This document shows positions 1,124 through 62,928 of a DNA stretch of 64,000 bases, piece by piece. Positions within the stretch are counted from its first letter, which is position 1. Each line of letters opens with the position of its first letter. Under the pieces are notes generated by a model that was not told the DNA's origin, searched no databases, and saw only the letters and a list, made by a program, of their open reading frames with translations. Position numbers and translations under genes: made by a program. The DNA is from Marsupella aquatica (Eukaryota; Plantae; Marchantiophyta): the NCBI GenBank assembly GCA_973895155.1, contig OZ316892.1, positions 5,736,476 to 5,800,475 on the forward strand, in the 5' to 3' direction.

Positions 1124-1586
1124 CGCGGCTTCAAAAAAAGTCAGTTCTCAATGTTGGGCAGCTGCGCATTGCGGTATGAAGGCATTTCAATACCACATTT
1201 GGCTGTGCGGAGGTTTAAGCAAAACGCGCCCAAAGTTCAAAGCAAGGTTTAGGGTATTGGGTACGTATGCGCGTTGGTGGGAAATATACCTTCTGAAATA
1301 AACACTTGTTGTACAATACTGTTAATTGAGTTGGTATACCGCCACTCAATATTGAAAATGAGCCTCTCTGTATCACTGCATAGGCCAATATGAAAATGCA
1401 AATGTACGTGCCTAATAACAATGAAATAAAATGCGAGACAGTGGGGAAGGTGAAAAACAAATACCGGAATGGGTATTAGAAGAAACATTTCATAGAATTA
1501 TCTTTGGTTCCTCCCACATCCATAATTATTTAGTAGGATGCTGCCACAATAAATTTAAATACACTAGTTTTAGTGTTCTCAGCGAA

Positions 1587-20170: not shown

Positions 20171-20788
20171 CCTGACAGGAATTACGGCCTCCCCCCACGA
20201 TCCAGCCACCTGACTCTCGCGCGCACTCACGTACTCGCCTGCGCTCACGTTCGCCTCCCCTCCGATTCCGCTCGCCTGCAATGATTTTGCTCGAAGCTCC
20301 TGATCTTCGTCCTTTGACCCTAACGTTGTGATGGTGAGTGCGACAATGGCCGTAAAGTTTTCGACAGCAGCAGCAGGGTTTCAACCATCTACTACTGCCG
20401 TCGGTGCTTCGTCGTCTGGATTCCCTTCTGCTCCAGTGTTGAGATCAGGACGGAACAGCAGCTGAGCCGCTTCAAAGTAGTTGGCCCCGGTCTAATATCA
20501 TTTTACATCAATCTTCTCCTCGTCTTGCTGTTGATGTTGCAGCTGATGTCTACAGATTTTGGTTCTGTCAACTGCCGCTGGAATGTTTTGGACTGCAGCC
20601 TCCGATGAACACCAATGCTTGGATGCGCATTCCCTACGAACCGCTCAGCTGCCAGGAGCTTTCAGGATCGAGTCTACCATCAAAAGCTGTTTGCTGACTT
20701 GCAGAGAGAATTGAGAGAAGTATGTGAGTGTACAACCAAAGAGACCCAGTGCTTCGATGCTCACACGGACTATTGCTTTAATGCCACG

Positions 20789-22213
20789 ATGGCTAGCGAG
20801 GAAGCGGTGATTGTGGTTGTGGGATGTGAGACGGAATACAAGGCCCGTGTTGCAGACGCTCTCGCTAAATGGCGTAGAGCATCGGAAACCGAAACTACGA
20901 AAGGCGGAGTTCGCATTTTTCGGAGGGAATCGTCCCCTGACGCAGTAGTTATAGACACTACACCTTTGGCAGACCACTTTTCTGAGTGGGTAGAGGCTGA
21001 ACAGTGGATTTCGTTGAATGGGTTAAGGAGGTTGTTTGGGAAGCTAATTTGTGTGATATGTGTCCTTCCACTTCAAGTCGGTCCAGAAGACGCAAGACAC
21101 AGCGAGTTTGCAATTCAGCCTTTCAAAGGGATGCATATACTGGGGCACATTTTCGCAGAGCGGAAACGAAACATTCTGATTCTGGCGAAGTTAGAAGGCA
21201 CCAACGACAGAGTAGCTCTGAGGTCAGGAGTCATAGATGCTCTCCAACGAGACGGATATGTGAAGAGCAATATTTTCTTTGAGAACATGGGTGCAGAAGA
21301 TATGATCCTGACTGTCAGGACGACGCTAGAACGCAGTGCTTTTCAGTGCAAAAGCTCAAACGAGTATTCAGGCACCACAATACAGTTCCGTCTCAAAGAA
21401 GTGACATCGAAATGCAAAGATCGCGACAGATATGGGTGTTGGGGCCCTGAGCGAGTGATTTTACTGGGGAGGACGGGGAGCGGGAAGTCTACTCTTTATC
21501 AAATGCTTACCAAGGGAGGGCTTGACCCTTCCTCAAAGTCCGCTGCAAGCTCAAGTATCAGAGGAGAAACCAAAGCAGTAATGCGTGGGGAAGGACGAGG
21601 CTGGTACGTGATTGACACGCCAGGCTTTGGGGAGCTGAAAGACAAACGGAGCACCATATCCACGGAAGAAGCACAAATGAGAATCAGAAAATATGTTCAG
21701 TACATTGAGGGTACTTACTCTCATTTTATCTACGTCGTAATGAAGGATCGAATCGACATGTTGGACAAGAAACTCTGGTCATTCTTTCAAGTTCTCTTCG
21801 AGGAAGGACATAATTTCACGGTCGTGGTTTCCAACGCAACCCAGACTTGGGTGGACCGAAACATATCAGCTTTACAGACAGATTTCACTGGCTGCGAGAA
21901 TTTTCTCAGCGGGGAATTCCCTCCGACGGCAACCGATGATGGCGAGTGGGAGGCAGAGCTGGAGGAGGTGCGAGGAGAATCATTAAAACGCCTTGAGGAC
22001 GAGCTCGCCAGTCTCTCCAGATTCGGCATCTCCAACGACGTAAACGACATCTCAAGAAGAACTACTCAAAATGATATGAGTCGGAGCGATAGTTTTTGGA
22101 AAGTTGGAGTCGTCCTTGGTGCCCAAAAAATTGCGGCTGGTATTGTTAGAACACAGGAAAGGTTGTACGACATGCTGAAGGTCGATGAAAAATTCGTTCT
22201 GTTGCCGGAGTAA
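20789..22213 (+). CDS. Intronless AIG1/GIMAP-Toc34-septin-class P-loop GTPase with an N-terminal degenerate GTPase-like domain (ORF open from ATG 20615)
   Basis: C-terminal half has G1 LLGRTGSGKST, G2 GET, G3 VIDTPGFG and YSHFIYV. N-terminal half has VIVVVGCETEYKARVADAL and VVIDTTPL. Confidence 0.85.
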   Translation: MASEEAVIVVVGCETEYKARVADALAKWRRASETETTKGGVRIFRRESSPDAVVIDTTPLADHFSEWVEAEQWISLNGLRRLFGKLICVICVLPLQVGPEDARHSEFAIQPFKGMHILGHIFAERKRNILILAKLEGTNDRVALRSGVIDALQRDGYVKSNIFFENMGAEDMILTVRTTLERSAFQCKSSNEYSGTTIQFRLKEVTSKCKDRDRYGCWGPERVILLGRTGSGKSTLYQMLTKGGLDPSSKSAASSSIRGETKAVMRGEGRGWYVIDTPGFGELKDKRSTISTEEAQMRIRKYVQYIEGTYSHFIYVVMKDRIDMLDKKLWSFFQVLFEEGHNFTVVVSNATQTWVDRNISALQTDFTGCENFLSGEFPPTATDDGEWEAELEEVRGESLKRLEDELASLSRFGISNDVNDISRRTTQNDMSRSDSFWKVGVVLGAQKIAAGIVRTQERLYDMLKVDEKFVLLPE

Positions 22214-25807: not shown

Positions 25808-26584
25808 ATGTCTCTGGAGAAGAAAGTGGTGTTGTTCGGGAGAACCGGCGATGGGAAATCCACTGTTGCCAACGCTCTTGTAACCGGAGGCATTGAAGAG
25901 GTGGTGTTCGCATCGAGCGATGCTGCTAGAGGCTGTACTGCTGAGATTAAGAAAGAGTCTGGAAGGGGCTGGTCGGTTACTGACACGGTGGGGCTCGGAG
26001 AAGCTGACACGGGAACCATCTCGAACTCCCAAGCGAAGGAGATCTTGACAGAGTTTCTGAAGAAGGTCAAGGATGAGTACTCACACATCATTTTTGTGCA
26101 GAAGGCAAATAGAGTTACTTTGATGGATGAGATGAATTGGTTATTGTTCAGTCAAATATTCGAGGGTGCAGAAGAGGCGTTTGTTATTCTCTTCACCTCA
26201 GCGGACCAAAAGTGGCTCGACGAGAACAGAGACAAGCTTCCAAACTACATGAAAGATGTCGAGACCCTGGCGGTTGACATACCTCCAATAAGCCATCGAA
26301 AAGTTACGGAGAGAAGGCAGAAGGAGATCCGGGAGAGATCTATCCGAAAACTTGAAGAAGATCTTGTGACAATCTTCGCGAGGAGGGGGAATATATACTC
26401 TACACCCACAATTGCTAAAATGAATGATGCAGAGCTAGAGGAAAAGTCATCATCTTTGATGCAGTTTATTGTCGACGCTATTAAGAAAATGTTCGATCCG
26501 AATATGTGGCTAACAATTGCGTCAAAACTTTCCTCTTTGGTGTCTGTAGCCGACTTGATCCTTCAAGTTATAAATATATCATGA
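25808..26584 (+). CDS. Intronless AIG1/GIMAP-like P-loop GTPase, paralogue of the C-terminal domain of 20789-22213
   Basis: KVVLFGRTGDGKSTVANAL, RGCT, GRGWSVTDTVGLGE, YSHIIFV, then a C-terminal amphipathic/hydrophobic tail. TATA-like CTATAAAT near 25191. Confidence 0.88.
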   Translation: MSLEKKVVLFGRTGDGKSTVANALVTGGIEEVVFASSDAARGCTAEIKKESGRGWSVTDTVGLGEADTGTISNSQAKEILTEFLKKVKDEYSHIIFVQKANRVTLMDEMNWLLFSQIFEGAEEAFVILFTSADQKWLDENRDKLPNYMKDVETLAVDIPPISHRKVTERRQKEIRERSIRKLEEDLVTIFARRGNIYSTPTIAKMNDAELEEKSSSLMQFIVDAIKKMFDPNMWLTIASKLSSLVSVADLILQVINIS

Positions 26585-28579
26585 TTTAGTTCAGGACTGA
26601 GGTATTTACGAGTGTTATAACCTGAGATTGAGGAACATTTCCGTTTTCAGAGTGGGTGATTGATTGCAACAGCTTAGACTGATCAAGGACCTAAGTTGTG
26701 TAGATACGATGGAGACCGGTTGCTAATTCTATGATCCGAGTTCAGTCTGTTGTTGGCGCCCAGAATTTCTCTGTACAAAATTTCATGAAAATATTCAATA
26801 TAGCTTTGATATCTGAGCCGATCTACAGTGAGAGAGGCTGATTTATCTGTCTGTTGCAGAAGACTTTCTAAGATATCGCTGATTGTCAATCGAGATACGC
26901 GTTGAAAGACTCACGAGTGGTGAAAGACATTTAGATTGCAATTCAGACACGCATTGCAAGAGTGAAAGTTTTACAGTGCATTTTGACTCCGTGCTCTCTT
27001 TATTATATAGGTGATTAGAATGACTTCAGCAGTCAGTCTAAACCGAAAGAAGTGGTCTGGGTGAAGTATGAAATCTACAGTATGTCTGATTTGAATGGCC
27101 AGGATTAATTTCTTTTTGCACGATGTAGGGGAGGATCTAATAGAACACTCTTAGACAGGACTTAAGCGACAGTGCTTGAGAAGATGGACCTGCAAAACAG
27201 ATTATTTTGAATCTTGGAGGCGACAGCGAGAAAACCACGTTGTTAAAAATTGCTTTCAGCAAAGCTTAGCAGCTAAAATAGGTCACTCTTGTAAACCCAA
27301 ATGGAAAACATTGAAAGCATATTCCATTTGGGTAGTGTTCCGGTCCTAGGTCAGAAGTTTAGTACGGTCTGTTTCAATACCTCCAATTTCGGTTCATCTT
27401 AATCGTTCCTGAATTCCGAGAAAGGAAACGAGATGAAAGTTAGCAGGTGGGCTTGATGAAGTTTTCATGTGGACAGGAAGCAAGTTTGTGTCTAACCGTT
27501 TTACCATTCAGACATCAACAACTAGATTGTCTTTCGACATAAGTTGAAGTGTAGCCCACTCGAATGTCTATTCAGAGCGGCTCACTCTAGCTTATATGCT
27601 TCTCTTTTAAGAGTTGTGTTTTCTCATGCCAAGGATTTCTCTCAGCTGTTGCTTCGACAGCCTTGGACCGACCTTCTTCTCTCCTTTAGACGCTTTCGAA
27701 TCATTTCTCATAATGTTTTGGTTCTTTGACGCACCTCAGTCCAGAAATTGGCCACGGATTCACTCTCTTACCTCTGGACAATATACCACCATTGAATCGT
27801 CTGTCCACTTGTTTAACAGTACGTTTGTTCTTTACAAGCATACTTCAAGGAGCAGTCAGATTGTGTCTCTTTTTCACAGTGACAGTATCGCAGTGAATTA
27901 AGAGACTACACTCTACAGCCGGTTTCCTTCTGCTGGTTGGGTTTGCTTGCTGTTTGACAATGAACAATTATTCCGGTCTCCCTCTCTAATTAAACAACGA
28001 ATCAGTAGTTGGAACTCGTGTAGACTTTGAATGACCGACTCGTGGATGAAATTATCCATGAGTACTTGACTGAGTCTGAATTGCGTGATCTGTTTTGAAC
28101 TGATGCAGAAACACACTACTCGTATACGCCACCCCTCACTACCCCAACATCAGTAAATTCCACCCAACAGACAATACACGCACAGTTGGGGCAAAGAATG
28201 TGCATTCCACAGTGAACAAGAGGTCAACATCCTGAGAAATCGTGGTAAGTATTCCTCAAAGTTGGACTACGAGCCTAAGTTAATTTTCACATGAGTAACC
28301 TTACACTTGTTAAACGCAACCAAGAAGTTACTCACATGTCCCCCCTTGGGCAGTCCCTTAGATCAGGAAAAAGGAGTCGGAAAACGAATTCTTATACACC
28401 AACTAATGTCCTTTCAGACCAGGGCTTGATTCGCCATCTACCACATTATTGTTAGATGGCGAAAGTTAAGTTGCAAGCTTTTAATAACCGACAACAGAGT
28501 TCAAGATGGCCCTCTAAATTCTGACAATAAGAATTTTCCTTGATGGAGGAGGAACTAAACAGTGGATCCCCGATCAGTT

Positions 28580-28822
28580 TGTTGAAAGCTAGATTACTGT
28601 GATCTGCTCTACAAATGAGGAAGCAGTAAAGAACTAAATAGGGCCAGAAGAAGGAGGCGAAGGCAAGCCAGCACCGGAAGCAGGCCCGAGGTCTAACAAC
28701 CAGGAGACAGCCGTTAGCACAGCACATGTCGTCAGAGGGACAACGGAACACAGCACCAGGTGAGGTAACAACTCTCTGACTCGTAACCAAGTGGAACCTG
28801 TGAGAGTACACAAGTTCCAACA
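28580..28822 (-). repeat. 3' LTR of Copia A
   Basis: Direct repeat of 34032-34274, adjacent to the PPT. Confidence 0.97.
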
Positions 28823-28883
28823 CCCCCTCTCGAGGAAGAGAGAGGGAAGATGAACCAGAACAGCAGAAGCGCACGCAGAAGCG

Positions 28884-29492
28884 ATGGAGCCGGGACGACG
28901 ACGAGAGCTGAAGCACACGATGGTCAGGGGACTAGCTGTAGTAGTGGAAATGTTGGGATTATGTTTCCAAGTGTGTCATAGTATTTGCATCGGTGTGGCA
29001 CAGTGGTTGCGACAAGAGGAGAAACCAGAGAATAAGGACAACCGGAGCTCCCCGGAGCCGCAAAGAGTGAAGACAGTGAAGAACCACAGTGAAAGTGCCC
29101 CCTTTGAAGCAAGAATCCAGCCGGGAGTGTCGACATATGTCACACCAGGTCAAGCGACGGCGGAGGTGAGGGAAGTGGAGAGCATCACGCAATTGGCGCA
29201 GCATGAAATGCGAATTCCCGGAGAAGTGAATCGGCAGCAGTCATGGCGCAGGAGTAGTGAACATCGATTGCAGATCAGGGGAGCAATAATGTTGAAGAAG
29301 TATTATGCAGTAGCAATAGGACGGGTACCGGGGATATATAGATCGTGGGCAGAGGCGGATAAGCAGGTGACAGGGTACTCAGGGAATTGTCACGAGTCGT
29401 TTAGGACCTTGGCAGAGGCGGAGCAATTTATGTCTGTGTATCATCCAAGGACAGGAGAGGTAGAGGTAGAACAATTGTATGTGGTGAGGTAG
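28884..29492 (+). CDS. Antisense accessory ORF of Copia A: N-terminal hydrophobic helix plus C-terminal RNase H1 hybrid-binding / Cauli_VI (viroplasmin) domain
   Basis: KKYYAVAIGRVPGIYRSWAEADKQVTGYSGNCHESFRTLAEAEQF fits the YAVxxGRxPGxYxxWxExxxQVxGYxGxxxKSFxTxxEAxxF consensus. The ORF fills the pol-to-PPT interval, and a homologue is present in Copia B. Confidence 0.85.
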   Translation: MEPGRRRELKHTMVRGLAVVVEMLGLCFQVCHSICIGVAQWLRQEEKPENKDNRSSPEPQRVKTVKNHSESAPFEARIQPGVSTYVTPGQATAEVREVESITQLAQHEMRIPGEVNRQQSWRRSSEHRLQIRGAIMLKKYYAVAIGRVPGIYRSWAEADKQVTGYSGNCHESFRTLAEAEQFMSVYHPRTGEVEVEQLYVVR

Positions 29493-29518
29493 GAGACGAG
29501 ATAGAGATGGAGAAGAGA

Positions 29519-32516
29519 TTATGTGGCGGCAGATATTTGTGTAACCGAGTTGACTCCAATAAAGGATTTGTGTTTTTCAAACTTGAGTCGCCCGAGAGGT
29601 TTTGTGAATAAATCAGCCGGGTTTTCAGAAGAATGAACATATGCGAGGGATATTTCCCCCTCTAGCACCCGCTCACGAATAAAGTGGTGCTTGCCCTCGA
29701 TGTGCTTGGTGCGAGCATGAAAGACCGGATTTTTAGCAAGCTTAATGGAGCCTTGATTATCGCAGTGCAAATGGAGATCGAGAGAGGAAGGGGAAGAGGC
29801 CAGTGAGAGGTCCGAGTGAATAGAAGCATCAGAAAAGGTAAGAGGCACCTGAAGAGGGGAGGTAATGTGAAGCTCGTTAAGTAAGCGGCGGATGTAGACC
29901 CCTTCCTTTGCGCCTTCAGAAAGAGCTTTATATTCTGCTTCAGTGGTGCTATCGGACACGGTGGGTTGCTGTTTGCTGGACCAAGAAATGGGTCCGGAAG
30001 CAAGCTGAAAGCAGTAGGCGCCGATAGAGCGGCGAGTCTCAGGGCAGCCTAGAAAATCAGCGTCGGTGTAGCCAGCAAGAGAAATTCCAGGTGAGCGTGA
30101 GTAGTAAATGCCATGATCGGTGGTATGGCTGAGGTAGCGTAGAATGTGTTTGACAGAGTCCCAATGTCGTTGTTGAGGCCTGGTCATGTAGCGACTAACG
30201 ATGCCAACAGCATAGGCAATGTCGGGACGGGTGTGAGTGAGGAAAATGAGTTTCCCAACAGCATGGCAGTAGTCGGTGATGTCCACAGGAGGTGTGTTGG
30301 TCTCAGAAGTGAGAACATGCCCTTCTGGTAGGGGAATGAACTCAGGTTTAGAATTGGCTAAACCAAATTCGCAGACCAGCTTCTGGCAATAGGAATGTTG
30401 ATGAAGAAGAAGTCCGTCATCAGTGCGAAGAAATTCGATGCCTAAGTACTTCTGCACTGGTCCGAGATCTTTCATTTTGTATTGTTGGTGGAGTTGGTCT
30501 TTGACGGCGGCAATTTTGTGAGAGTCGTTTCCTGTCACTAGGAGATCATCAACATAAATCATGATAATGACAATAGAGGTACCTTCGCAGAGAAAGTAGA
30601 GATTGTTGTCCGCCATGCTCCGGGTCCAGCCATTGCGCTGAAGGTAAGCGTCGATCTCTTCATACCAGGCCCGTGGAGACTGCTTGAGCCCGTATAGGGA
30701 CCGCTTCAGACGGCAAACCAAGTGTTCAAGTCCAGGGACTTCAAAGCCACGAGGTTGTTGCATGTACAATTCTTCAGAGATGGTGCCGTTGAGAAAAGCT
30801 GTTATAACATCCATGTGATGCAGTTCCCATCCAAGAGCCACGGGCAGAGCGATGATAGTGCGAAGAGTGGACCATTTGACCACAGGGGCAAATGTCTCAT
30901 AATAGTCAATGCCGTATTTTTGCTCAAGACCCCGAGCCACCAGGCGTGCCTTCAAGCGGAATCGGGTAGGATTCGGATCCGGTTTAGACCGGAAGATCCA
31001 TTTAGCAGACAGGGCTCGTTTGCCGACAGGAAGAGGAACAAGCTCCCAGGTACCCATGGCCATGAGAGCCTCAAACTCTTCTTGCATGGCTTCACGCCAC
31101 AGGGGGTGGCGGAGAGCTTCAATCTCAGAGATTTCGTCTGATTCAGGTTCGGCTGATTCAACGAGAAAGGTGTCCATGTGGTCAGGCCTCCAGCTCATGT
31201 CATAGTCTTGATGCCAAGGTGGGGGACGCTTCACACGTTGGGAGTGTCGAGCAACATGAATTGGAGCCGGAATCTGTGGAGATCTAGTTTGAGAAGAGTT
31301 AGCCGTAGGGCAGGCCGAAGTCTCAGTGTCCTCGTCAGGGGGTGTCACATATTCAATATTGCCGTCAGCAGTTGAAGGGTTGTCGACTGCAGTTGCCCCC
31401 TCTTGGGCCGATGGACCAAACTCAGGATCAGTAAGCAACGGAAAGAAGAGACTGGTGACAACTTCTTGATTTGAACAGAAGTCGTAAAAGGAACCTTCAA
31501 TGATGTTGACGTTGGAGGCAATAAGGATACGTTTACGAATGGGGTCAAAGCACCGATATGCTTTGGACTGTGCGTCGTAGCCGAGTAAAACAGTGCGTAT
31601 TGCTTTAGCGCCCAGTTTGGAGCGCAGATGCGGAGGAAGAAGAACGTAGGTAAGACTGCCAAAGATCCGAAGGTGATCCAAGTGTGGTTTCTGACCCCAA
31701 AGAGCTTCGAAGGGGGTCATCAATTTGAGAGCCCGAGTGCCACATCGATTCTGGGTGTAGTTGGCTGTGGCAACTGCTTCTGTCCAAAGATTGATTGGCA
31801 CGTTGGAGCTGAGAAGAAGACTACGGGCACCTTCCAAGAGAGTACGGTTTTTGCGCTCAGCCACACCATTTTGATGAGGAGTGCGAGCAACGGTGAGTTG
31901 ACGACGGATCCCGTGTTGTCGGCAAAAAGTGAGGAATTCAGAGGAAAGGTACTCGCCACCCCGGTCGGAACGTAAGCAAGAGATTTTCATGGACAACTGC
32001 TTTTCAACGAGTAACTTGAATTCCTGAAACTTAGAGAAGGTTTCACTTTTGTGAGAGAGAAAGTATACCCAAGTGAAACGTGAAAAATCGTCAATGAAAG
32101 TGAGGATATATCGGTGTGAAGTGGAGGCAGGAAGGGGACCATAGAGGTCAGAATGAATCAGCTCCAGTGGTCGGGAGGCACGGGTCGCAGATGATTTTGG
32201 AACTCGATCGCGGTGGTGTTTGGCCACAATACAGGTCTCACAAGAGCGTTGAACTCGTGGGATGGAAGGTAGGCCATGAGCCAAGTTATGATGTGACATG
32301 TGATGGAGCATCTGAAAATTGACATGGTGGAGTCGTTTGTGCCAGAGGTCAATGTCGTCCTCCATGGGAGACGATTCAGCAAGAAGCATTGGTGCCGGCT
32401 GAGCGAGAGAGTGTGGTCGAAGACGAGTGGTGGTGCAGAGAGGAGAAATCGAGGGAAAAGATCGTGGAAGCCGATACAGGTGATTCCTGGGATCTCGGGT
32501 GCCCCGTAGGAAGATC
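29519..32516 (-). CDS. Copia A pol: GAG-pre-integrase, integrase, RT, RNase H (continues the gag-PR ORF after a 1-nt frameshift at 32517-32519)
   Basis: LWHKRLHH..C..C, FIDDFSR, SDRGGEY, QNGVAERKN, MDVITAFLNG, YGLKQSPRAW, YVDD, GYTDAD, STTEAEY, HCDN, NPADLFTK. Confidence 0.95.
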
Positions 32517-33851
32517 TTTCTGAGGGTTATCCTTGTCAAAGACAAGACAAGAGTGAGAATTGAAGAAGACATTGTGGCCAGCGTCAGTGAGATTGCCAAT
32601 GGACATGAGATTTCGTGTCATACCCGGGACGTACAAAACATTGCGGACGGTTTTATTGGGAGCAATATGGACTGAACCGCTTCCAACAACAGGGAGTTTA
32701 GTGCCACTGGCGGTGGCAACGGAGCCGGCACCACTGGAGTGATGCATGCCACCAGAGAAAACAGATTTGTCTCCAGAGACGTGAGTACTAGCGCCTGAAT
32801 CTAAAATCCAATCGTTTGTGCTAGTGCTAGGGAGGATCTCAGTGAAATTGGCCTCCAAATCTGCACCGGAGTCGTCGTTCTCATCGGCCGGGTCAGCTTC
32901 TTCTTCTTTATCATACGGAGCTTCGACTTCATGAAATATTTCAGCTACATTGGCCTGAGGACGAAAACGTCGGAGACTGGCAGCTCGAACTTGAAGTTGT
33001 GAGATTTGTTCGTCGACCTTTTTGAGGTCACAGTCGGATTCCCAGTGTCCAGACTTGCCACAATAGTGACAGGAGGTAGGGCGTCGCATGCCACGTCCAC
33101 CGGTTGCACGCGGATAAGAGTTGACCCGTGGAGGATAGCTGACAGCAGGTCTGGGGGTGAAACTGCCTCTTCCACGCCCTGAGGATTGATTGAACCGAGA
33201 CACAAATAGGGCCTCCTCGGTAGGCTCAGAACGTGACTGAATATTGAGCTTCCATAGCTCTTCGGCCTGCATACGCTCCAGCAGGCTGTTGTACGAAGGT
33301 CGTGGTGTACGGGCAAGGTCAGCGGAGAAGATGGAGACAAAGGTTCCCCAACTCGCAGGTAGTCCACGGAGCACAAGGTGAATGAGCTTGTTGTCATCTA
33401 CGGCAGCATCCATGCTGGCCAGTTGGCCAGCGAGGTTGTTGATTGTGTTGATGTATTTCTCAACAGGGGTGCCGTCGGTCATGCGAACAGTTTGTAGCTT
33501 CTCTTCCAGTATCAGTCTGCGTTGATATAGGTCGCCACCGAATCGTTGTTGGAAATGTGCCCAGCATTGAGCTGGGTCATCAGAGTACTTATCTACAGTG
33601 GGCAAGAACTGAGCTTTCACTGTAGCTGCAAGAATAGAGGTGGCCCTCACTTTCTTCTTTGCGATCTCACTTTCAGTCAGGTGTGCCCCACCATCTTGAA
33701 CTTGACCATTGGCATCCGGCTTGACTCCAAAGTTCAGTTCCGTGAACAGATCGTCACGCTTCAGGAGATTCTTCACAAAGATGGTCCATGCTAAATGATT
33801 GCTGGCTCCTTCCAGCTTATCTACCTCAGTAAACATCTTCATCATATCCAT
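32517..33851 (-). CDS. Copia A Gag (UBN2-like), CCHC zinc knuckle and aspartic protease
   Basis: KLEGASNHLAW, VLRGLPASW, CHYCGKSGHWESDC, WILDSGASTH, NVLYVPGMTRNLMSIG. Confidence 0.95.
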
Positions 33852-34031
33852 GGTCGGATGACAGAGAATGTCGCAACAGTATTAACCACGAGGAACTTTC
33901 ACTCAGGACTGTACTGTGACTATTCTAATGCAGGAGTAAGATGCCAGGGAACTTTCGACCTGGGTTACTAGCCTGTAGCTTGCACTAATTTCTCATCTAG
34001 AGAGTGCGTAGAGACTTGTGCTCTGATACCA

Positions 34032-34274
34032 TGTTGAAAGCTAGATTACTGTGATCTGCTCTACAAATGAGGAAGCAGTAAAGAACTAAATAGGGCCAGA
34101 AGAAGGAGGTGAAGGCAAGCCAGCACCGGAAGCAGGCCCGAGGTCTAACAACCAGGAGACAGCCGTTAGCACAGCACATGTCGTCAGAGGGACAACGGAA
34201 CACAGCACCAGGTGAGGTAACAACTCTCTGACTCGTAACCAAGTGGAACCTGTGAGAGTACACAAGTTCCAACA
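34032..34274 (-). repeat. 5' LTR of Copia A
   Basis: Immediately followed on the minus strand by the PBS TGGTATCAGAGC. Confidence 0.97.
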
Positions 34275-35372
34275 AGTTGAGTAGATATGGTCTGGAAAGC
34301 CAGGTAGCTAGTACCCGAACGAAAACCTGTGCAGGTGACTAAATGCAGTACACTACTAGCGAAGATAAAGTATGCCTACCTCTTTACGTCCTCAATGCTA
34401 TCTGTGCTAGCCATGAGCTACAGTATTGTTATAGCCAATGGACATTATATTGTACATCATACGATAGCTCATCACAAAAGCATGAGGTGCTATTGGACGA
34501 GTGATTATCACAAATTGATGCTTAAGGCCTTCAAAGACATGGACTCCGAGAGTTACCCCACGTATCACTCGTTCATATCCATGTCCACCAGTCACTCGCG
34601 ATCAGCCCCAGTAAAGCAGTAGCGGCGGACTTGACGAGCCAGAAGTTCCTTGAATATTTCTGGTCACCAAACCCATCCACCCACCTGCCATAAGTCCCCT
34701 CAAAATCCAAATTGTGCCGGCTCCGACTCGAAATCTCTTGGCCCTCCCTCGTTTTTGTCTGTATGTCGTATTGTGCAATTGCAACAGGGTACAAGTAAAT
34801 TTATGGGGGTCACAGGGAGGGGGAGCAAATCAAACCAGGGTGTGAGGAATTAGGAGACAAGGGACAGATCATCGACCAGGCCAGAATAGGAGAACTGTTT
34901 TATTTGCGCTAGAATGGTCTCTTGCTGCTTTGGTAGTTATCTGGGAATTTGCACTAAGTAAACCCATTCACCCATTTTCTAGACCAATATCCTTGTGGAG
35001 AAACCCTGACCCACGTTCAATTTCTCACATCACCGCGGCTTAAAGTCACTACGGACCACTTATGTCGCCATAGAGAAGATTAACCTAGTGAGTCCTTCCA
35101 GTTTAACTCTCGGTTTCTTTAGTTCCATAGCATTAAGGAGGAAGTGTGTTTGCTTTGCTTGGCCCTTTTGAACATAATTTTCCCCCTCTGTTTGTTAATT
35201 TGCATTGCAATATGGAGGAAGTGGTAACTTTGTCCAGATGTTTATCGCGGGCTCGGACTGCGGACCCCTAGTGTGTTAGACTAGCGTGATAACCATCTAC
35301 ACCAACCAGACTCGACCCTGTAGCTGCCCTTGACTTATTTGTATATTAAAATATGTCCAGACACCCATTTGT

Positions 35373-35717
35373 TGTTGAAAATCTACGTACATACATTGTT
35401 CTCGGGTTCTACCCTCATCACGCCAACTGCACCACTTAATTAGTGAACCGGTGATCAACTGTAAATTGATTAACAGCTGCTGGATATTCTTTACTATTGT
35501 CGCTTGACAGATCAGCTGTCACCCATTTTTAGTTCTCTAGGACAAAGTCCCCCCTTGGATGCTAACCACCCGCTCCTGTGTGACGGACGCATTCTAGCCC
35601 TTCGATGATTCTCATCCTAAGGCCAGGTTAGCAAGCCGCTTAACGGCTGTTTCTCTCTCTGTGTATAATTTCTCTCTTTCACGAGGGCACATCAAGCATT
35701 CTCAGAAAATTTCTACA
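35373..35717 (+). repeat. 5' LTR of Copia B
   Basis: TG..CA ends, followed by the Met PBS. Confidence 0.97.
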
Positions 35718-35777
35718 TGGTATCAGAGCTACCAGATTTCTGAGACTCTTCACTCCACGACATTCCAAGGTCCCACC

Positions 35778-38700
35778 ATGTCTTCCTTTGACACCACGAA
35801 TATCTCCTTCTCAGATAGTGAGAAGCTGGTAGGAGCACTCAACTACATTATCTGGGCCTTTCATGTCGAACAAGTCCTACGTGAGAGAGGGCTGTGGTAC
35901 GTGGTCGATCCTTCTGCTCAGCCTGTCACCAATGGGCAATCTGGAGCAGGGGGAGTGAATCCATAGAACTTAGGATCAACCACAGCCACCAGCAGCACGA
36001 CGGGAGCCCCAAGCAGCACGACAGGAGCCACCAGCAGCACAGCTGCAGCTGGACCCATCGTGGACCCGCTTCAGAAAGACAAAGAGCGGGTAATCATAAT
36101 TCTTACCAAAGCTTCCATTGTCTCTATATTTCCTATCATTAGGAAACTGCGCACGGACCCAGCTAAGCTCTGGGCCACTCTTAAGCAGAAGTTTGAATCC
36201 ACCGCGATTCAGCGGAAACTAGATCTTAAAACTTCCCTTGTTGAGTTCAAGTTGCCTGAGGGGGGATCCGTTGAGGAATACCTCAAGAAAATTGAACATC
36301 ATGTGATGCAGCTAGCTTCAATAGATGAAGAAATTCCCGACAAGGAGCTCATTCAGATTGTACTGCGTAACCTTCCGGCTAGTTGGGCGTCATTCAAATC
36401 TGTTTATGGTGTCCTATATTCCAAAGATACTACCGCTACCTTTGCAGACTTTGAAGAGTACCTCCAGGCTGAGGAGTTCAGCCGGAAGCCTCTTGGAGAC
36501 AATGTGGAACACTCTCTAGTGGCTGTTTCAAGCGACAATAAGCGTGAAGCTCCGACACCCCACCATGGAGATCCACGTAGGGACTACAACCATGGTGGGA
36601 GAGGTCGTGGTCGAGGCAGGCTCAACCGGTGGGGGCCCAGGAACACTGCACCACGAGCTTTCGCTGGCAGGCCATCCTGCAACTACTGCGGATAAGAAAG
36701 GACACTGGGAACTTGACTATTTCGAGAAGCAGGCCTACGCTGATATCAAGTCCATGTCTCCCACTCAGATGAGAGAGTTAACTCAAAGCATCAAGGACAT
36801 CAAAGGTCTTGGACCCAAGTCTTACCTGACTACCCACAGCGACATTGGGGATAGTGACTCTGAGAAGAACAGTGCACCCACTGATGATCAGTCAGCTCTC
36901 ACAGTTGAAGCGATGCTCAGTGAGTTTGACGACACTTGCCTTGACAGTCACACCTGGGTCCTTGATAGTGGCGCCTCCACTCACATTAGCCGGGATAAAA
37001 GCAACTTCATCTCACTTCGTGGCAACTCGTCTAAGTCCAACGTCTTAAGTGCCAGCGGATCCAAGATGCCTGTGGCCGGATCCGGTTGTATTCCTATTTC
37101 AAGCAATAAAGCAGTCTCCGATGTTCTTTACGTCCCTAGTATTACAAGGAACCTTCTCTCCATTGGGAAGCTTACCGACCAGGGACACTCCGTCATCTTC
37201 AACTCGTCAAACAGCTATATTCTAGATCAACAACGACCACACAAGGTACGTCTCAAAGGAACACGAGATCCACTGAGTAAGTTGTATAAATTACAGCTTC
37301 CCTGTAGCGCAGCTGACCAGCCCGAATGCTCTCAACGGCGACTGCTCATGCACTCAAGTCTGACGTCCCAATGTCATCTATCGGAATCACGACTCTCTAC
37401 ATCTCAATTATGGCATCAGCGTTTGGGCCACTCTAGCTCTCAGAGAATTGCTCACATGACTCGACACAATCTTGTTGCTGGAGTCCCTCCGTTGTCCTCT
37501 GAAGACCACATTTGTGAGACATGTGTGAAGGGAAAGCAAACCCGTCACAAAATTCCTAAGGCTGCCACTTCTCGATCACAGAGGCCTTTGGAGTTGATCC
37601 ACACAGACCTATGTGGACCTTTTCCTGTACCAGCACTCTCCGGCGCAAGGTACATTATCACCTTCACTAATGATTATTCTAGATTTATGTGGGTCCATTT
37701 TCTCAAGCTCAAAAGTGAGGCACTTGAGTCCTTTAAATCCTTTAAAGCACAAGTTGAAGTCGCCTTTGAGTATAAAATAGCATGTGTCCGTAGTGATAGG
37801 GGTGGCGAGTATACATCAGAGTTATTTCGTTCATTCTGTCTGACTCACGGCATATCTCGCCAACTAACTATTGCGAGAACCCCATATCAAAATGGGGTTG
37901 CTGAAAGAAAGAATCATACCCTCCTAGACATTGCTAGGTCACTAGCCTTCGGCTCCAATGCTCTTGCATTTCTCTGGGAGGAACTAGTTCGCACCGCCAA
38001 TCACATCAACAACCGTTGCAGCACTCGCGCTCTTAATCTTTCCACACCCTTTGAATGCATGACATCTACGAAGCCTGATCTAGGCCATTTTCGGATCATT
38101 GGTAGCACTGCACACGTTCACATTCCCGCAGCTCTACGCAACAAACTAGAGGCGAAGTCCATTAAGTGCGTTCTACTTGGCTATGATGACCAAAGCAAGG
38201 CTTACCGTTGCTATAACCCAGCCACTCAAAAAATCCTCATCTCCCGCGACGTTATAATTGATGAATCTACTCTTGGCGATTTCCTCCCCTCACCCATGGA
38301 CCACTCTGAAAGTCTATTTGATCTCTTCTCGTTTGACGCAAGTGACTCCCTGATCTTTGTCCCTCCAAGTCTCTCGGGCCATCTTAACTCTAGTTGTCCC
38401 GCAACGGATCCGTCTGAGCCTTCCTCTATTAGCTCAGATTCCCCCCCGGACTCCTTAGATCTACCTCCGGATCTTCCCCCGGCACCACTCCGACGGGCTC
38501 GCCATCGCAATACTGAGCGCACACGGCCACCCTCCGGGCGTCTAACCTCCTTTCCGCGTAAATACGATGATTTTCATGTCTCGCTTGAAGCTGAGATCTC
38601 TGCACTCTGCACCGCCCTCATTGCAGACTCCAGTAACGATATACAACTCAGTGCCGCCCTTCAAGATCCGCGTTGGGTCGAGGCTATGCAATCCGAGCTT

Positions 38701-40237
38701 CAAGCACACGAAAAAAATGGCACATGGGATCTTGTCAATCTTCCTCCGGGGGAGAAGGCCCTATCTGCTCGATGGGTGTTAAGGGAGAAGATTGATCATG
38801 CGGGAAACTCAAAATTCAAGGCTCGAGTAGTGGCCCGTGGCAACGAGCAAAGAGAGGGGCTTGACTATGATGAAACATTTGCACCAGTCGTTCGGTGGTC
38901 AACAGTCCGCCTCATTGTTGCCCTTGCTGCCGCACATGGGTGGCCTCTATTGCATATGGACAGCGTTTCTCAACAGCACCCTACGGGAACTCATTTACAT
39001 GAAACAACCACCGGGCTTTCTCATGCCAGGACATGAAGAGCTTGTCTGTCGACTACGAAGATCCATCTATGGCCTCAAGCAAAGTCCAAGGGAGTGGTAC
39101 AAGGAAGTAGATGCCTTCCTCAGGTCAATTGGATGCACCCGAAGCTCTCTTGACCCAAATCTATATTTCAAAGAGCAAGACGGGAAAACCGCAATCATTC
39201 TACTATTTGTAGATGATCTGCTCATTATCGGGAGTGGACAACATCTCATTGCTGAACTCAAGACGCAACTACAGTCCAAGTATGAAATGAAAGACCTTGG
39301 CACAGCCCGACGCTATCTTGGAGTAGACTTCCATCAGTTTGATGACGGCATACTACTACATCAACAATTCTATGCTGACCAACTAGTCCACGAGTACGGG
39401 ATGGAAGATTGTCAACCAACTGCTACACCACTGCCAGAAGGTCTAGAGCTATCTGCTGAGACCAACACACCTGACATAGATGTCACGACATACTGCAAGC
39501 TGGTAGGAAAACTCATCTATCTCACCAACACCAGGCCCGATGTTTCCTTTGCTGTTGGACTGATCAGTAGATTCATGAGCCGACCTCAGCAAGCTCACTT
39601 TGATGCAGCTATGCACATAGTCAGATACATCAGAGGGACAACTGATCACGGTGTGTTCTACAAGAGAGGGAGCTCACTAGAGATTCAAGGATACACAGAT
39701 GCAGACTGGGGCAACTCCTGCCCAGATACACGTAGATCCACGGGTGGATATGTTCACAAAGTAGCAATGGGTCCCGTAGCATGGAGCAGCAAACGGCAGC
39801 CCACAGTCTCACGCTCAACCACGGAAGCTGAGTATAGAGCACTCTCCGACGGTACTCAAGAAGGAGTTTATCTGAAAAGACTCATTGAAGAACTACAGAG
39901 ACACCAAATCGCACCCGGCAGTCTCAAGCACACCAACTTGGAAATATCGGTAGATCTCGAGAATTCCATCGTTCCCACGCTACAGGACTTACACATGCAT
40001 TGCGATAACATGAGTGCAATCAAATTGGCCAAAAATCCAGTATTTCACGCTAGGACAAAGCATCTCGAAATACATCACCACTTTATTAGGGAAAGAATAT
40101 TAGAAGGAGAAATCTCGGTACAACATGTGAGGTCCAACGAACAGGTTGCCGACATCCTGACTAAAGCTCTCCCTAGAGCAAAGTTCTGCAGAAACCGTGA
40201 TCAACTCGGCATGAGATCCCTTGCTCAAGTTTGTTGA
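35778..40237 (+). pseudogene. Copia B gag-pol, disrupted
   Basis: ATG at 35778. In-frame TAG at 35964. Frameshift near 36690 in the Zn knuckle (CNYC..KGHWELDY, last Cys changed to Tyr). Integrase FTNDYSR (D to N). Frameshift/deletion near 38960 in the RT HMD..TAFLN motif. FVDD and RNase H motifs intact. Confidence 0.95.
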
Positions 40238-40259
40238 CAATATCACGATGCTCTGCTAT

Positions 40260-40769
40260 TCAATTTTTGAGCTCTAATCCTGGCGGGCACCATTGCGCTG
40301 CATATACATATCTGCCTCCTGCATGTCTTGTTCTAAAGGACTTGAATTTGTTCCCTCTATAGCCACTAACCAGCGGCTCTGTTTCCTCCCACGTCATATA
40401 CACTCCTGGACGTCGACCTCGGGCTACTGCATAATATCGACGTGGAGGGTCCCTCGACACATCTGGGATCATTGCAACTGGAACTCCCATTACTGGTGGC
40501 CAAGATTCTCGATTCACCTCATCTCTCCATTGAGCAACTCCTGACTCCCGATGGACCGGAGTCCGTTGTAACTCCACTGCTGTATGCACCACTTCCGGTC
40601 TACTATTTACCTGAGTCACGCGTGCATCTTGTTGTCTGGTACTTAACCTCTCCTCGCGACCACATCTGAAGGAGTCTACCAAGAACCGTGCCAGTGCAGA
40701 CAAGATGTCTAACATCGCAAGAAGGAATTGGAATGATGTATCACGTAGTGCATTGCCTGCCGGTGCCAT
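40260..40769 (-). CDS. Antisense accessory ORF of Copia B: hydrophobic helix plus RNase H1 hybrid-binding / Cauli_VI domain, with a probable 4-nt insertion near the C-terminus
   Basis: RRYYAVARGRRPGVYMTWEETEPLVSGYRGNKFKSFRT. Removing 4 nt near 40325-40328 gives FRT-MQEADMYM, which aligns with FRTLAEAEQFM of Copia A. Confidence 0.82.
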   Translation of the reverse strand: MAPAGNALRDTSFQFLLAMLDILSALARFLVDSFRCGREERLSTRQQDARVTQVNSRPEVVHTAVELQRTPVHRESGVAQWRDEVNRESWPPVMGVPVAMIPDVSRDPPRRYYAVARGRRPGVYMTWEETEPLVSGYRGNKFKSFRTRHAGGRYVYAAQWCPPGLELKN

Positions 40770-40867
40770 CTTCTTTCTGGACCTGTCTGCCTGGGAGTAT
40801 TGCCTCCTTTGGCACTTCGACGTTGCATATCTTCTCTCTCTATATGCGTGATGAGGTCAAGAGGGGG

Positions 40868-41203
40868 TGTTGAAAATCTACGTACATACATTGTTCTCGG
40901 GTTCTACCCTCATCACACCAACTGCACCACTTAATTAGTGAACCGGTGATCAACTGTAAATTGATTAACAGCTGCTGGATATTCTTTACTATTGTCGCTT
41001 GACAGATCAGCTGTCACCCATTTTTAGTTCTCTAGGACAAAGTCCCCCCTTGGACCCGCTCCTGTGTGACGGACGCATTCTAGCCCTTCGATGATTCTCA
41101 TCCTAAGGCCAGGTTAGCAAGCCGCTTAACGGCTGTTTCTCTCTCTGTGTATAATTTCTCTCTTTCACGAGGGCACATCAAGCATTCTCAGAAAATTTCT
41201 ACA
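40868..41203 (+). repeat. 3' LTR of Copia B
   Basis: Direct repeat of 35373-35717, preceded by the PPT and followed by TSD TTTGT. Confidence 0.97.
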
Positions 41204-41693
41204 TTTGTACCATAAAGTTGCTTGAACCGAAGCAGCAAAAGCCCGACTGGAAAGTGAAGCTACACGCATGAATAGAAAGAGAGCGAGAGCACGACCGACC
41301 TCTTGAATGATCACTGACTCTTGAGGCTGAGCCACCACTTCGAGTTCAGTGAGAAATCCTGATCCGTCGGTATCTGAAGTGTAACCATGAGTTATTCTGA
41401 GTACTGGCAAGCAGGAATTGCGAAAACCGATACTAACTCCCAATCCAGAGCCCGATCCGGAGCTCTCGCTATTGAAAGCGATCTTGATCATGATGATGTC
41501 AGTGTATGGCTGCTTGACGAAGTGAGGAAATCAGAATTGAGGTATTCCACACAATGGGACATTCTCTGAAATCCCTGAAGCAGGTTTCGAGCGGTATAGC
41601 GATATTTGATAAAGTTTCACACATTTCGATACTCACCAAAACCCCCAGAGGATGCATGGGATCTCATCCTCATGGGATCGCTTCTACGAGACC

Positions 41694-53743: not shown

Positions 53744-56700
53744 ATGGCAGCATCGACTAGAGGTACTCGTCTCCGACATCTTATCATCACATTCGTGATC
53801 CTAGCCGACGTTGGGCAACTGTCTTTGTGCGGTTCTTTTAGCAGCAGTCTCGAGAGTCATGCTAGAGCTTTAAAGAGGGTGGGAGGAGCTACTACTACAG
53901 GGTTCAATGTGGTACCCACTGGTGCGCCCAGTACTGCTCGTTCCCTATCCGACAAAGGAAGGCGAAGATTCTCGCTTGAACCAACTATAGTCATCAACCC
54001 GATCAAGTCCAGCAAAGAAGTGGAAATTCTCATGGCTTTCAAGAGTGAAATCACGGGCGACCCACAGGGAGTGCTGAAAAGCTGGGGATCCCTGTAGATG
54101 GGCGGGGGTTGGATGCTCTCCGAACTCCAAGTTGGTCACCACACTCAATCTTAGAGGCCATGACCTGGTAGGAACGGTCTCAACCCTCCTCGGTCAGCTT
54201 CTATATCTGCAGAATCTCGACCTCTCCCAAAACTTCTTGCATGGCTCAATACCAGCCAGTGTTGGCAACTGCTCTAATCTGTTGCATCTCAACATGTCGT
54301 TCAACGATCTAAATCACGACATCCCTCCTCCAGTAGGAAATCTTGACAGACTTCAAACTCTAGACTTGTCCAACAACAATCTTACCGGAGGGATTCCAGA
54401 AACACTTGGCAACTGCTCGGCATTACAACATGTGGATTTAGGTACGAATTCGTTTGACAAAGGTATTCCTTCTCAATTCGGCGCTTTGTCGAGTTTGAAG
54501 TTTCTCAGTCTCGAGAACAGCTCAATTTCTGGCTCCATTCCACCTTCTTTGGGTAATTGCTCATCACTGACCGAGCTGTGGTTGAGCTACAATGTTGGAC
54601 TGAGGGGGGAGCTCCCATTCCAGTTGGGGAAGTTGATTCACTTGCAAGATTTTCGGATACTAAGGTGCAGTTTCGGGGGGAATTTCCCCACGTGGACACT
54701 GAATCTTACTTCAATGCAGCACCTCAACCTAGGTGAGAATCAGTTGGCTGGTCAGCTACCTCAAACCGGCTGGAGACAATTATCTAATCTTGCCTTTCTG
54801 GGATTGGAATTCAACTCGTGGGATGGATCTGAGGTTCCCCATGAGATCGGTTCATTGCCTAATTTGTATATGTTTAACATCGAAAATGGTGGTCTCGTCG
54901 GAGAGATTCCAAGATCCATTTTCAATATCACCTCCCTTCAGATTCTTATGTTGCACGAGAACCACTTGACGGGTGCTATTCCAGATGAAATAGGTTTGCT
55001 GACAAACTTGGAATGGCTATATCTTTGGAGTAACGCATTCAGCGGCGTACTTCCCTCCTCATTATCTAATTGTTCACTTTTTCAGTTCCTTATGTTGGGA
55101 GAAAACCCAGGATTTGATCCTCAACCTTTGCCCTCCTGGATAGGATCGTTCCAATATTTGAGTAGTCTGTACTTCCCTGAGATGAATTTTCAAGGAGAAA
55201 TTCCGACAGAGATTGGTCAACTGTCCCAGATAGGTGAATTTTTAGTGTTCTCTAACAATTTGTCCGGAGTCATTCCAGCTTCTCTGGGAAACTGCACTAC
55301 TATTTACAATTTGGAAATGTACGGAAATCAACTAGCCGGCCAGCTTCCCCCTGAGTTGGCACAACTGTCACTATTGCGAAGCCTCCAAATTTCAGATAAT
55401 GCTTTCTCAGCTGGCCCTTTCCCGAGGTTCATCTACAATCTAACCAGCATATACGACATAGGAGTCCAAGATAATCGATTCAATGGAAACTTGTTAGAAG
55501 GAGATTTTGGAAGCTTCCAGAATTTGGATTCTTTTGAAGTCAGTAATAACTATTTTGACGGCCCGATTCCTGGATCCTTCAGCAATTGTTCCTACCTGAC
55601 TACTTTGGATTTGCAAGGAAATACCTTGAGTGGAGAAATTCCATCCGGGCTCGCCAACTTGACCATTCTACAATCGCTTCTACTGGGAAGCAACAACTTT
55701 CATGGAAGTATTCCTGTGGACCTTTTGAGGAACTTTAATTTGATGGAATCCCTTGATTTCAGTGACAATAACTTGGATGGTATCATCCCAGTGCAGATTG
55801 GCCAACTTGTCAACTTGCAGCAATTGAATATGTCTGCAAATCATTTCATCGGGGCACTTCCGGATGCATTGCGCAATTGTACACAGCTGCTGTCAATGGA
55901 TTTGTCACGCAACAGACTGACCAGCAGTATTCCGGGAGAAGCTTTTGCAACGATGTCTTCTCTGATCGTGCTGAATTTATCCCGCAACTTAATTTCAGGT
56001 TCATGGCCATCACAACTTGGTGGGCTGAACAGAATTGTGGTGATAAATGTGTCTGCCAACAACATCTCAGGACCGATTCCTTTGGGTCTGGGGGGGTGCC
56101 TTTCGCTTGAAAGCTTGGATGTCTCTTACAATCAGTTGTCAGGAGCAATTCCTCAAGATCTTGGATTGCTGAAGTATCTTTCCACCTTCGACGCTTCTTA
56201 CAACAACTTCAGCGGGCCAATCCCTGCTTCTGGTGCTTTCCGGGCCAACCTGACGACGGCTTCATTTTTGGGAAATCCTGACTTGTGTGGAGGTGTTCTT
56301 GGGCCTCAACGACTCTGTCCAGTTGAAATAGCTCCGCCAATGGGGAAATCACATTGCAACGGTTTTGAATGTCCCCTGGTGTGGATATCTGTAGTTTGTG
56401 CTGTGGGGTTTGTTATAATTCTGCTGGGAGCCTTGTATGTCTCCACCCACCGTTATCGCAAGAAAGCAGAGAGCGGGGACCTGGGACTCGTCACATTCAC
56501 CACTAATCCTTCCATGAGGTTCTTGACGAAATTCGACATAATTGCTGCCATGGGAGCCGGGGAGGACTCTACAATCGGAAGGGGCCCCAAAAGCGTTGTG
56601 TACAAGGCTACTTTACCTGGGGGGGAGATAGTTGCCATCAAAGTTCTGAAGGATCCAGTGCCATCTACAATTGACGGAGAGAAGCTTTGCGCAAAGGAGT

Positions 56701-62566: not shown

Positions 62567-62928
62567 CGAATTCAGGGAGACGAGTCCCTGCATTGTCATT
62601 CAATGCACCTCGATTCTCCCCCATAGTCCACCGGAATACTCTCCATTTTTGTGTCTCACTTTAGTTTCAGGCCAGCCACATTTTTGGGTCCCGGTTCAGT
62701 TTTGAGGACACAAATTTTTGAGGAGTTCTAATGTTTGATAGTTTTAACTTATTCACAAATAATGTAAAACTATAATATCAATTTTAAAAATATCAATATA
62801 TTTGTTAATATAAAATATAAAATAATTATAAAATATTAAATGGTAATGAGCATGGAGAATTGATGCACAGAAGTAGTGTGTGACCTAGTTGTATTGGAGG
62901 TCAGTTGAGACTATGATGTGGCATGTTC

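Follow-up and report, generated by a model that had tools for sequence, protein, structure and literature searches.

An antisense open reading frame with an RNase H1-type hybrid-binding domain in Ty1/copia retrotransposons of the liverwort Marsupella aquatica

We analysed a stretch of 64,000 nucleotides from the liverwort Marsupella aquatica (contig OZ316892.1 of assembly GCA_973895155.1, positions 5,736,476 to 5,800,475), referred to below as the window and numbered from its first letter. The interval of interest comprises two complete Ty1/copia elements arranged head to head, with their 5' long terminal repeats (LTRs) about 1.1 kb apart: E1 on the minus strand, running from 34274 to 28580, and E2 on the plus strand, running from 35373 to 41203. 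Each of them carries an open reading frame (ORF) antisense to gag-pol, at 28884-29492 on the plus strand (ORF1) and 40769-40260 on the minus strand (ORF2), the coordinates of both being reproduced exactly as given in an earlier note made from the sequence alone. The two proteins contain the hybrid-binding domain (HBD) of RNase H1, known in Pfam as Cauli_VI (PF01693), and the evidence presented below indicates that the gene is very probably real, maintained by selection, and an accessory ORF at the level of a lineage of elements. The features of the two elements are as follows.

28884..29492, plus strand: ORF1, 202 aa, intact; helix, disordered linker, HBD and short tail
28890..29018, plus strand: N-terminal helix of ORF1, residues 3-45, with a hydrophobic core (from the model; maximum of the hydrophobicity measure KD19 1.89)
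29298..29441, plus strand: RNase H1 hybrid-binding domain (Cauli_VI) of ORF1, residues 139-186 (Pfam, PDB profile match, AlphaFold model)
40260..40769, minus strand: ORF2, 169 aa, with a probable frameshift in the last HBD helix near 40331
40329..40439, minus strand: hybrid-binding domain of ORF2, residues 111-147 in frame (Pfam)
28580..28822, minus strand: 3' LTR of E1, 243 bp, TG...CA (LTR pair comparison)
28823..28831, minus strand: polypurine tract of E1 (sequence)
29519..32620, minus strand: pol frame of E1, with integrase, reverse transcriptase and RNase H (ORF list and Pfam)
32376..33851, minus strand: gag-protease ORF of E1 (ORF list and Pfam)
34020..34031, minus strand: primer-binding site of E1 (sequence)
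34032..34274, minus strand: 5' LTR of E1 (LTR pair comparison)
35373..35717, plus strand: 5' LTR of E2, 345 bp
35718..35729, plus strand: primer-binding site of E2 (sequence)
35778..40237, plus strand: gag-pol of E2, broken in this copy (ORF list and Pfam)
40859..40867, plus strand: polypurine tract of E2 (sequence)
40868..41203, plus strand: 3' LTR of E2, 336 bp

Both elements display the full set of Ty1/copia attributes, namely the order gag, protease and integrase, followed by reverse transcriptase (RT) and then RNase H (RH), an RT of the RVT_2 type, LTRs bounded by TG...CA, a primer-binding site, a polypurine tract and target-site duplications; the Pfam domains Retrotran_gag_2, Pol_BBD, gag_pre-integrs, rve and RVT_2 occur in Copia order in both gag-pol regions. 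The primer-binding site shared by E1 and E2, TGGTATCAGAGC, is of what we take to be the full initiator tRNA-Met type. The LTRs of E1 (28580-28822 and 34032-34274) differ by one mismatch in 243 positions, and those of E2 (35373-35717 and 40868-41203) by a single substitution together with an indel of 9 bp. E1 is flanked by a 4-bp duplication (28576-28579 and 34275-34278), its empty insertion site being present on contigs of runs X3 and X4, and E2 by a 5-bp duplication (35368-35372 and 41204-41208); among the Copia entries of the cited REXdb table, 4-bp duplications are given only for a part of Gymco-II (PMC6317226). E1 and E2 are young insertions from old families, which must be regarded as separate because their LTRs are unrelated, with no shared match longer than 10 nt, and because they are only 28% identical in gag and 54% in RT-RH (44% in the integrase region). 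The earlier description of the pair as elements with dissimilar LTRs and clearly diverged polyproteins is thus borne out. The acidic motifs of RT and RNase H are present in E1, and those of RNase H are also kept in E2. Gag-pol is intact in neither copy: gag and pol lie in different frames in E1, and E2 has one in-frame stop and two frameshifts. We note that E2 (35778-40769) combines near-identical LTRs with this gag-pol damage and a probable frameshift in ORF2, as would be seen either in a defective element copied in trans or as a result of indel errors in the assembly.

In both elements the spacer between pol and the polypurine tract is filled by the antisense ORF. The ORFs stop 26 and 22 nt from the respective pol stop codons, as the earlier note had it, but their start codons do not lie inside the 3' LTR as it also stated; they fall within the internal part of the element, with 61 and 98 nt remaining to the LTR edge. 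Mononucleotide shuffling of either spacer yielded no ATG-initiated ORF as long as ORF1 or ORF2 (0/2000). The notion that the ORFs are antisense shadows of pol is ruled out, as there is no overlap with pol. The gene has the placement and conservation of an antisense 3' accessory ORF: it is antisense, situated between pol and the 3' LTR, and kept across copies and families.

The identity of the domain, proposed in the earlier note from the sequence motif, was confirmed at the level of both profile and predicted structure. PF01693 matches ORF1 with 68.9 bits (E 4e-19) and ORF2 with 57.3 bits (2e-15), the cut-off being 21, and sequence profiles match the N-terminal domains of yeast and human RNase H1 in the PDB (1qhk, 3bsu, 6vrd). 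In the AlphaFold model of ORF1, the helix at residues 3-45 and the HBD at 139-186 are both confident, while residues 60-134 are disordered. The modelled HBD shows the predicted three-strand, two-helix fold and superimposes on 3bsu with a root-mean-square deviation (rmsd) of 0.5-0.7 Å over 44-46 columns (probability 1.00, E 1.7e-3 to 2e-2). No catalytic RNase H domain (PF00075) accompanies it, as PF01693 is the only domain detected by Pfam in ORF1, ORF2 and two further proteins introduced below, the ORF of the element L026 and P0135. A search with ORF1 found three homologues among 186 candidates, all of them via the HBD. The best 150 of 9,162 matches from a profile search of 1.84 billion proteins were multi-HBD proteins, with none matching pol or the N-terminal parts, and RVT_2 was absent from the 41 of these that were scanned with Pfam, so that the family was not enlarged in this way. 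The ESM Atlas offers a lead, no more, in clusters of Basidiomycota with Cauli_VI at 0.85-0.90. In some public proteins (P0221, P0223, P0282, P0307), repeated HBDs are joined to Pif1 and UvrD helicases.

According to published work on human RNase H1, Y29, W43, F58, R57 and K60 touch the DNA strand, R35 props the RNA-binding loop and W43A abolishes hybrid binding (PMC9603397, PMC6846478); K59A/K60A lowers the affinity about tenfold (PMC6846478). Y29, R35 and W43 are retained in ORF1, ORF2 and the L026 ORF. Positions 57-60 read C-H-E-S in ORF1, K-F-K-S in ORF2 and I-H-Q-K in L026, so that the affinity or specificity of the ORF1 and L026 domains is likely to be shifted. All three families share an asparagine at human position 56, which occurs in only 7 of 252 background domains.

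The third family was found by scanning JGI metagenomes with a degenerate RNase H motif, which returned 38 loci. One of them, L026, lies on an independent metagenome contig and is the sole locus of the 38 with an HBD, encoded in an antisense ORF of 213 aa (PF01693 42.0 bits, 1e-10) that stops 18 nt from the pol stop. It is set apart also by its RNase H, in which the motif spacing is 77 residues compared with 47-53 in 32 other loci (five could not be measured). None of the other Copia loci with 350 nt or more of sequence beyond RNase H (28 loci of 14 families) has an HBD; three loci from a scan of genome contigs have neither the HBD nor the longer spacing, and scans of viral contigs returned no member of the lineage. 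A third family with the ORF on the same strand and in the same place substantiates the claim of the earlier note, based on two families, that this is an accessory ORF retained in a lineage. In ENA, JGI and Logan data, 24 proteins are closely related to that of L026, and contigs of 5.3-5.5 kb encode several of them. Low-depth contigs that are about 80% identical to the window over 29294-29419 (HBD) and 29555-30178 (RNase H) hint at an additional ORF-bearing family in the same genomes, the linkage of the two parts being suggested by their equal depth only, and the three codons with listed HBD changes comprise two synonymous changes and one Ser-to-Thr replacement.

The longer spacing reflects an insertion of about 24 residues in the RNase H of E1, E2 and L026 (16-26 extra residues in other members of the clade described below), for which we found no name in use and which itself shows a lower proportion of nonsynonymous (pN) than of synonymous (pS) differences. 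In the window it lies in the following stretches.

29765..29872, minus strand: RNase H stretch of E1 with the lineage-specific insertion of about 24 residues
39893..40000, plus strand: RNase H stretch of E2 with an insertion of the same length

Among the best 120 of 1,572 matches to the RNase H region of E1, polyproteins from Logan and JGI and two proteins from Calypogeia fissa rank at the top (50-70% identity), and these top matches share the insertion. We inferred a quick maximum-likelihood tree from RT-RH sequences of 72 rows, keeping all insertion-bearing rows, dropping every second other row and using no lineage-labelled references. Seventeen insertion rows, together with one truncated row, form a group with an SH-aLRT support of 99, and one unrelated row with a longer RNase H spacing falls outside it. 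E1, E2 and L026 belong to a subclade of 11 rows (SH-aLRT 98), within which E1 and E2 occupy separate branches about one substitution per site apart. Since these elements group with the Calypogeia fissa proteins, the host of the clade is likely a liverwort or other bryophyte, and the clade is apparently unclassified. Membership of the Bryco lineage was considered and is ruled out by the primer-binding site, if TGGTATCAGAGC is indeed of the full tRNA-Met type as we presume. Bryco elements have a half tRNA-Met site in 6/6 cases in the cited REXdb table (PMC6317226).

The common layout that had been claimed for the two proteins holds for the homologous C-terminal HBD, and the likeness of their N-terminal parts is compositional only. 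The linker motif EVNR..SW does not stand as a sign of homology: outside the HBD the local alignment score of ORF1 and ORF2 is 31, which was reached by 115 of 500 shuffles, and the similarity of either to L026 in these regions is no better by the same test. Two relatives of L026, P0135 and P0140, have at their N-terminus a hydrophobic segment containing Cys (KD19 1.8-2.8), like that of ORF1 and ORF2, and the model of P0135, although poor (mean pLDDT 44.5), shows the same order of helix, linker and HBD. However, L026 lacks most of the segment and most members of its cluster begin at a downstream methionine, which means that the N-terminal helix is not universal. An obligatory membrane anchor is thereby ruled out, and the role of a membrane-tethered replication scaffold, one of those envisaged before, loses much of its appeal. 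It may be added that the L026 contig begins at a sequence resembling a polypurine tract and that within its positions 1-80 the upstream frame corresponds to the tail of a P0135-type hydrophobic segment, followed by a stop.

Selection on an element-encoded protein, previously argued from position alone, is supported by codon comparisons. For the three pairs of families, 36 gap-free HBD codons gave pS of 0.71, 0.88 and 0.92 against pN of 0.28, 0.32 and 0.47 (Fisher p 2e-4, 5e-7 and 6e-5), with the differences clustering at third codon positions when read in the antisense frame; the HBD is thus under purifying selection with synonymous sites saturated, and between E1 and E2 its pN comes near the value of 0.25 for the RNase H core. 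The HBD window was picked for alignability, and this test does not separate selection in the element from selection in donor genes. We favour the former because the ORF has the same position and strand in three families, because the rare Asn 56 is shared, and because the HBD is more conserved than the linker (88% versus 72% identity within the L026-like family). An 89%-identical subfamily from run X3 has lost 9 bp in frame, and none of the 29 changes listed creates a stop.

Antisense 3' ORFs are well established in Ty3/gypsy elements of the Tat group (PMC7264820, PMC11963269, PMC4408406), where they are known as aORF-3R or eORF-3'R and include gene23 of Grande, those of RIRE2, TRP28 of Retand and PMD of Ogre (PMC7264820, PMC11963269, PMC6317226). 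Like them, the ORF described here is an addition to gag-pol, lies on the opposite strand in the space from pol to the 3' LTR and is kept across families; unlike them, it resides in a Ty1/copia element, occupies a spacer of only 630-700 nt and specifies a domain whose structure and biochemistry are known. Where plant LTR elements carry antisense accessory ORFs, the products are otherwise described as being without a clear database match or known role (PMC7264820). In the cited part of the REXdb survey, eORF-3'R is recorded for 1% of SIRE elements and for none of Bryco, Lyco, Gymco, Ale and Ivana, the extra ORFs of Copia are mainly the sense ORF of SIRE, and PF01693 does not figure in the CDD table; the survey counted ORFs of at least 250 codons, and ORF1, ORF2 and the L026 ORF are all below this cut-off (PMC6317226). 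For 4,811 consensus sequences of Copia elements drawn from 121 angiosperm genomes, a screen reports, in the part cited, no domain gain that passed its filter, its 15 uncommon domains being confined to Gypsy (PMC9289625). The clade could thus have been missed by existing surveys owing to the ORF-length cut-off and the focus on angiosperms. As the earlier note had suspected, we found no published Copia element with an HBD, Repbase and subscription journals lying outside our search.

Other systems share some aspects of the gene. With RNase H1 itself (PF01693; 3BSU, 1QHK) it has in common the fold and the core residues Y29, R35, W43 and F61, but not the catalytic domain; furthermore, its HBD is C-terminal, following a helix and a disordered linker, and K59 is changed in two of the three families. 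The viroplasmin of caulimoviruses (P6/TAV, dsR domain) is likewise a separate accessory protein of a reverse-transcribing plant element with a nuclease-free HBD; yet P6 is a sense-encoded, multidomain protein of about 520 aa that self-associates through D1-D4, whereas the proteins considered here have 169-259 aa and match it in the HBD alone. The caulimovirus link suggested before hence comes down to the shared domain, with RNase H1-type proteins among the best single-domain sequence matches. Tat elements with an archaeal-type RNase H (aRH) also exemplify the gain of an RNase H-related module by an LTR element (PMC4408406, PMC6317226), although aRH is catalytic and located inside the Gypsy polyprotein, unlike the binding domain alone in a separate antisense ORF. 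Finally, PF01693 occurs inside a transposon in capE of a Pleurotus Helitron, a single DNA-transposon copy for which the cited text reports no conservation across a lineage (PMC4289320).

What might the protein do? We tentatively favour a scenario, serious but still short of probable, in which the selected, nuclease-free HBD protein is expressed from the 3' LTR side and shields RNA:DNA intermediates of the element from host RNase H. Between pol and the polypurine tract, the Copia clade with the RNase H insertion would have gained the antisense ORF, possibly by a single capture of the HBD in the ancestor of the clade. Antisense transcription would start on the 3' LTR side, the E1 3' LTR being the predicted promoter source for ORF1. 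The geometry of the elements suggests this, as does the reported transcription of the antisense 3' ORFs of Grande and Retand (PMC7264820); the ORF strand shows no TATA-like motif in either LTR or leader, and AATAAA, a common motif, occurs downstream of both ORFs. The protein would then bind the RNA:DNA replication intermediates and act as a decoy, coating the hybrids and competing with host RNase H1, with the N-terminal helix likely serving as an optional docking or self-association segment. This scenario is attractive because the RNA:cDNA hybrid is the obligatory duplex of such an element and because host RNase H restricts a Ty1/copia element in yeast, where Ty1 hybrids and mobility rise without RNase H (PMC4214602). 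Competition with host RNase H1 in particular is plausible since that enzyme finds its substrate via the same domain.

Several observations weigh against this scenario. At the position of K59, which is Lys or Arg in 221 of 252 background domains, ORF1 has Glu and the L026 family Gln; both of these families have His in place of F58, and the net charge of the ORF1 domain is 0, the background median being +3. Reverse transcription takes place inside particles, and packaging of the HBD protein is only presumed. ORF2, although it retains K-F-K, is probably frameshifted in its last HBD helix: joining the neighbouring frame near 40331 with an X at the break raises the score from 53.6 to 58.6 bits and extends the profile match from 44 to 48 of 50 positions, a modest gain of 5 bits. 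The linker appears to evolve almost freely or under weak constraint, the changes listed for the run X3 subfamily over 28980-29147 comprising 16 nonsynonymous and 7 synonymous ones (omega about 0.58, p 0.18). The HBD tree (48 columns) is poorly supported, with 1 of 45 inner branches starred and the three families not grouped, so a single capture is not demonstrated. Lastly, the 3' context is known for 3 of the 19 insertion-bearing rows.

An alternative, which we consider unlikely, is that the domain has been repurposed as in P6, to bind proteins or dsRNA and so adjust translation, TOR signalling or silencing in the host to the element's benefit. P6/TAV proteins are indeed the top viral matches in structure, and the basic DNA-contacting residues are changed in two of the three families while the fold is kept; nonetheless, the likeness to P6 is limited to the domain, longer structure alignments having an rmsd above 20 Å, and Copia gag-pol is not known to depend on a reinitiation factor. 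In P6, the domain binds TOR, eL18 and eL13 (PMC5902531, PMC5670102), and antisense transcription would itself yield double-stranded RNA (PMC7264820), but the P6 domain is reported to be dispensable for suppression of RNAi (PMC5902531), which weakens the idea of an anti-silencing shield that the earlier note had drawn from P6.

Slightly less likely than repurposing, in our judgement, is a helper of the element's own enzymes, bringing RNase H to hybrids in trans, perhaps via the RNase H insertion, or tethering the integration complex to host R-loops. The ORF and the insertion do co-occur in 3/3 elements with known context and are both missing from the other measurable loci, the insertion shows pN below pS and the RNase H acidic motifs are kept in E1 and E2; moreover, the HBD serves as a targeting module in fusions with RNase H and with Pif1 and UvrD helicases. 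However, co-occurrence in three related elements amounts to shared descent rather than independent evidence, a fusion to pol would be simpler than an antisense placement, and all other Copia elements, as far as we know, replicate without such a helper. A complex prediction for the E1 RNase H and ORF1, with alignments not used, scored 0.00, which gives no verdict either way.

That the ORFs are passengers, i.e. fragments of host RNase H1 captured perhaps repeatedly and conserved merely through selection on the donor genes, is quite improbable: although the regions outside the HBD cannot be aligned between families, the families do not group in the HBD tree, ORF2 is probably broken, several of the database members are cut short, the linker evolves nearly neutrally and the Pleurotus Helitron copy carries PF01693 as captured cargo (PMC4289320), this idea is at odds with the way position, strand and end spacing stay constant among three families that lie about one substitution per site apart in RT-RH, with their common rare Asn, with open frames of 169-213 codons that fill the spacer and are unmatched in shuffled sequence, with the in-frame deletion and the lack of a stop among the changes listed for one subfamily, with the HBD exceeding the linker in identity inside one family, and with the usual sense orientation of transduced cargo (PMC7264820).

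As for the surroundings, the E1/E2 pair (28580-41203) sits between AIG1-like genes and a leucine-rich-repeat (LRR) kinase gene, and the two elements possibly share an insertion preference. The former are AIG1/MMR_HSR1-type GTPase ORFs at 20615-22213 and 25808-26584 (plus strand), intronless as read, the first of which has an N-terminal part of about 270 residues without a clear Pfam match. The LRR receptor-like kinase ORF (54078-57161, plus strand) is followed 7 kb downstream by a diverged partial tandem copy (about 61100-62600, plus strand). At 1587-3044 and 197-1147 (minus strand) there are pieces of PIF/Harbinger-type transposase (DDE_Tnp_4), beside an ORF that contains an acidic tandem repeat of 18 bp.

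The small size of the domain, its solved structure and its known contact residues make binding, competition with RNase H1 and localization directly testable. In its broadest form, which is possible but doubtful, our interpretation is that a bryophyte Copia clade encodes an RNase H1 decoy as a counter-defence, and that the domain has been captured by Copia more than once, in parallel with caulimovirus P6. If the protein does protect hybrids, it would represent a transposon-encoded answer to restriction by RNase H, as documented for yeast Ty1 (PMC4214602); and if both the decoy function and the repeated capture are true, this would be the first accessory gene of a plant Copia element with a defined nucleic-acid-binding domain.

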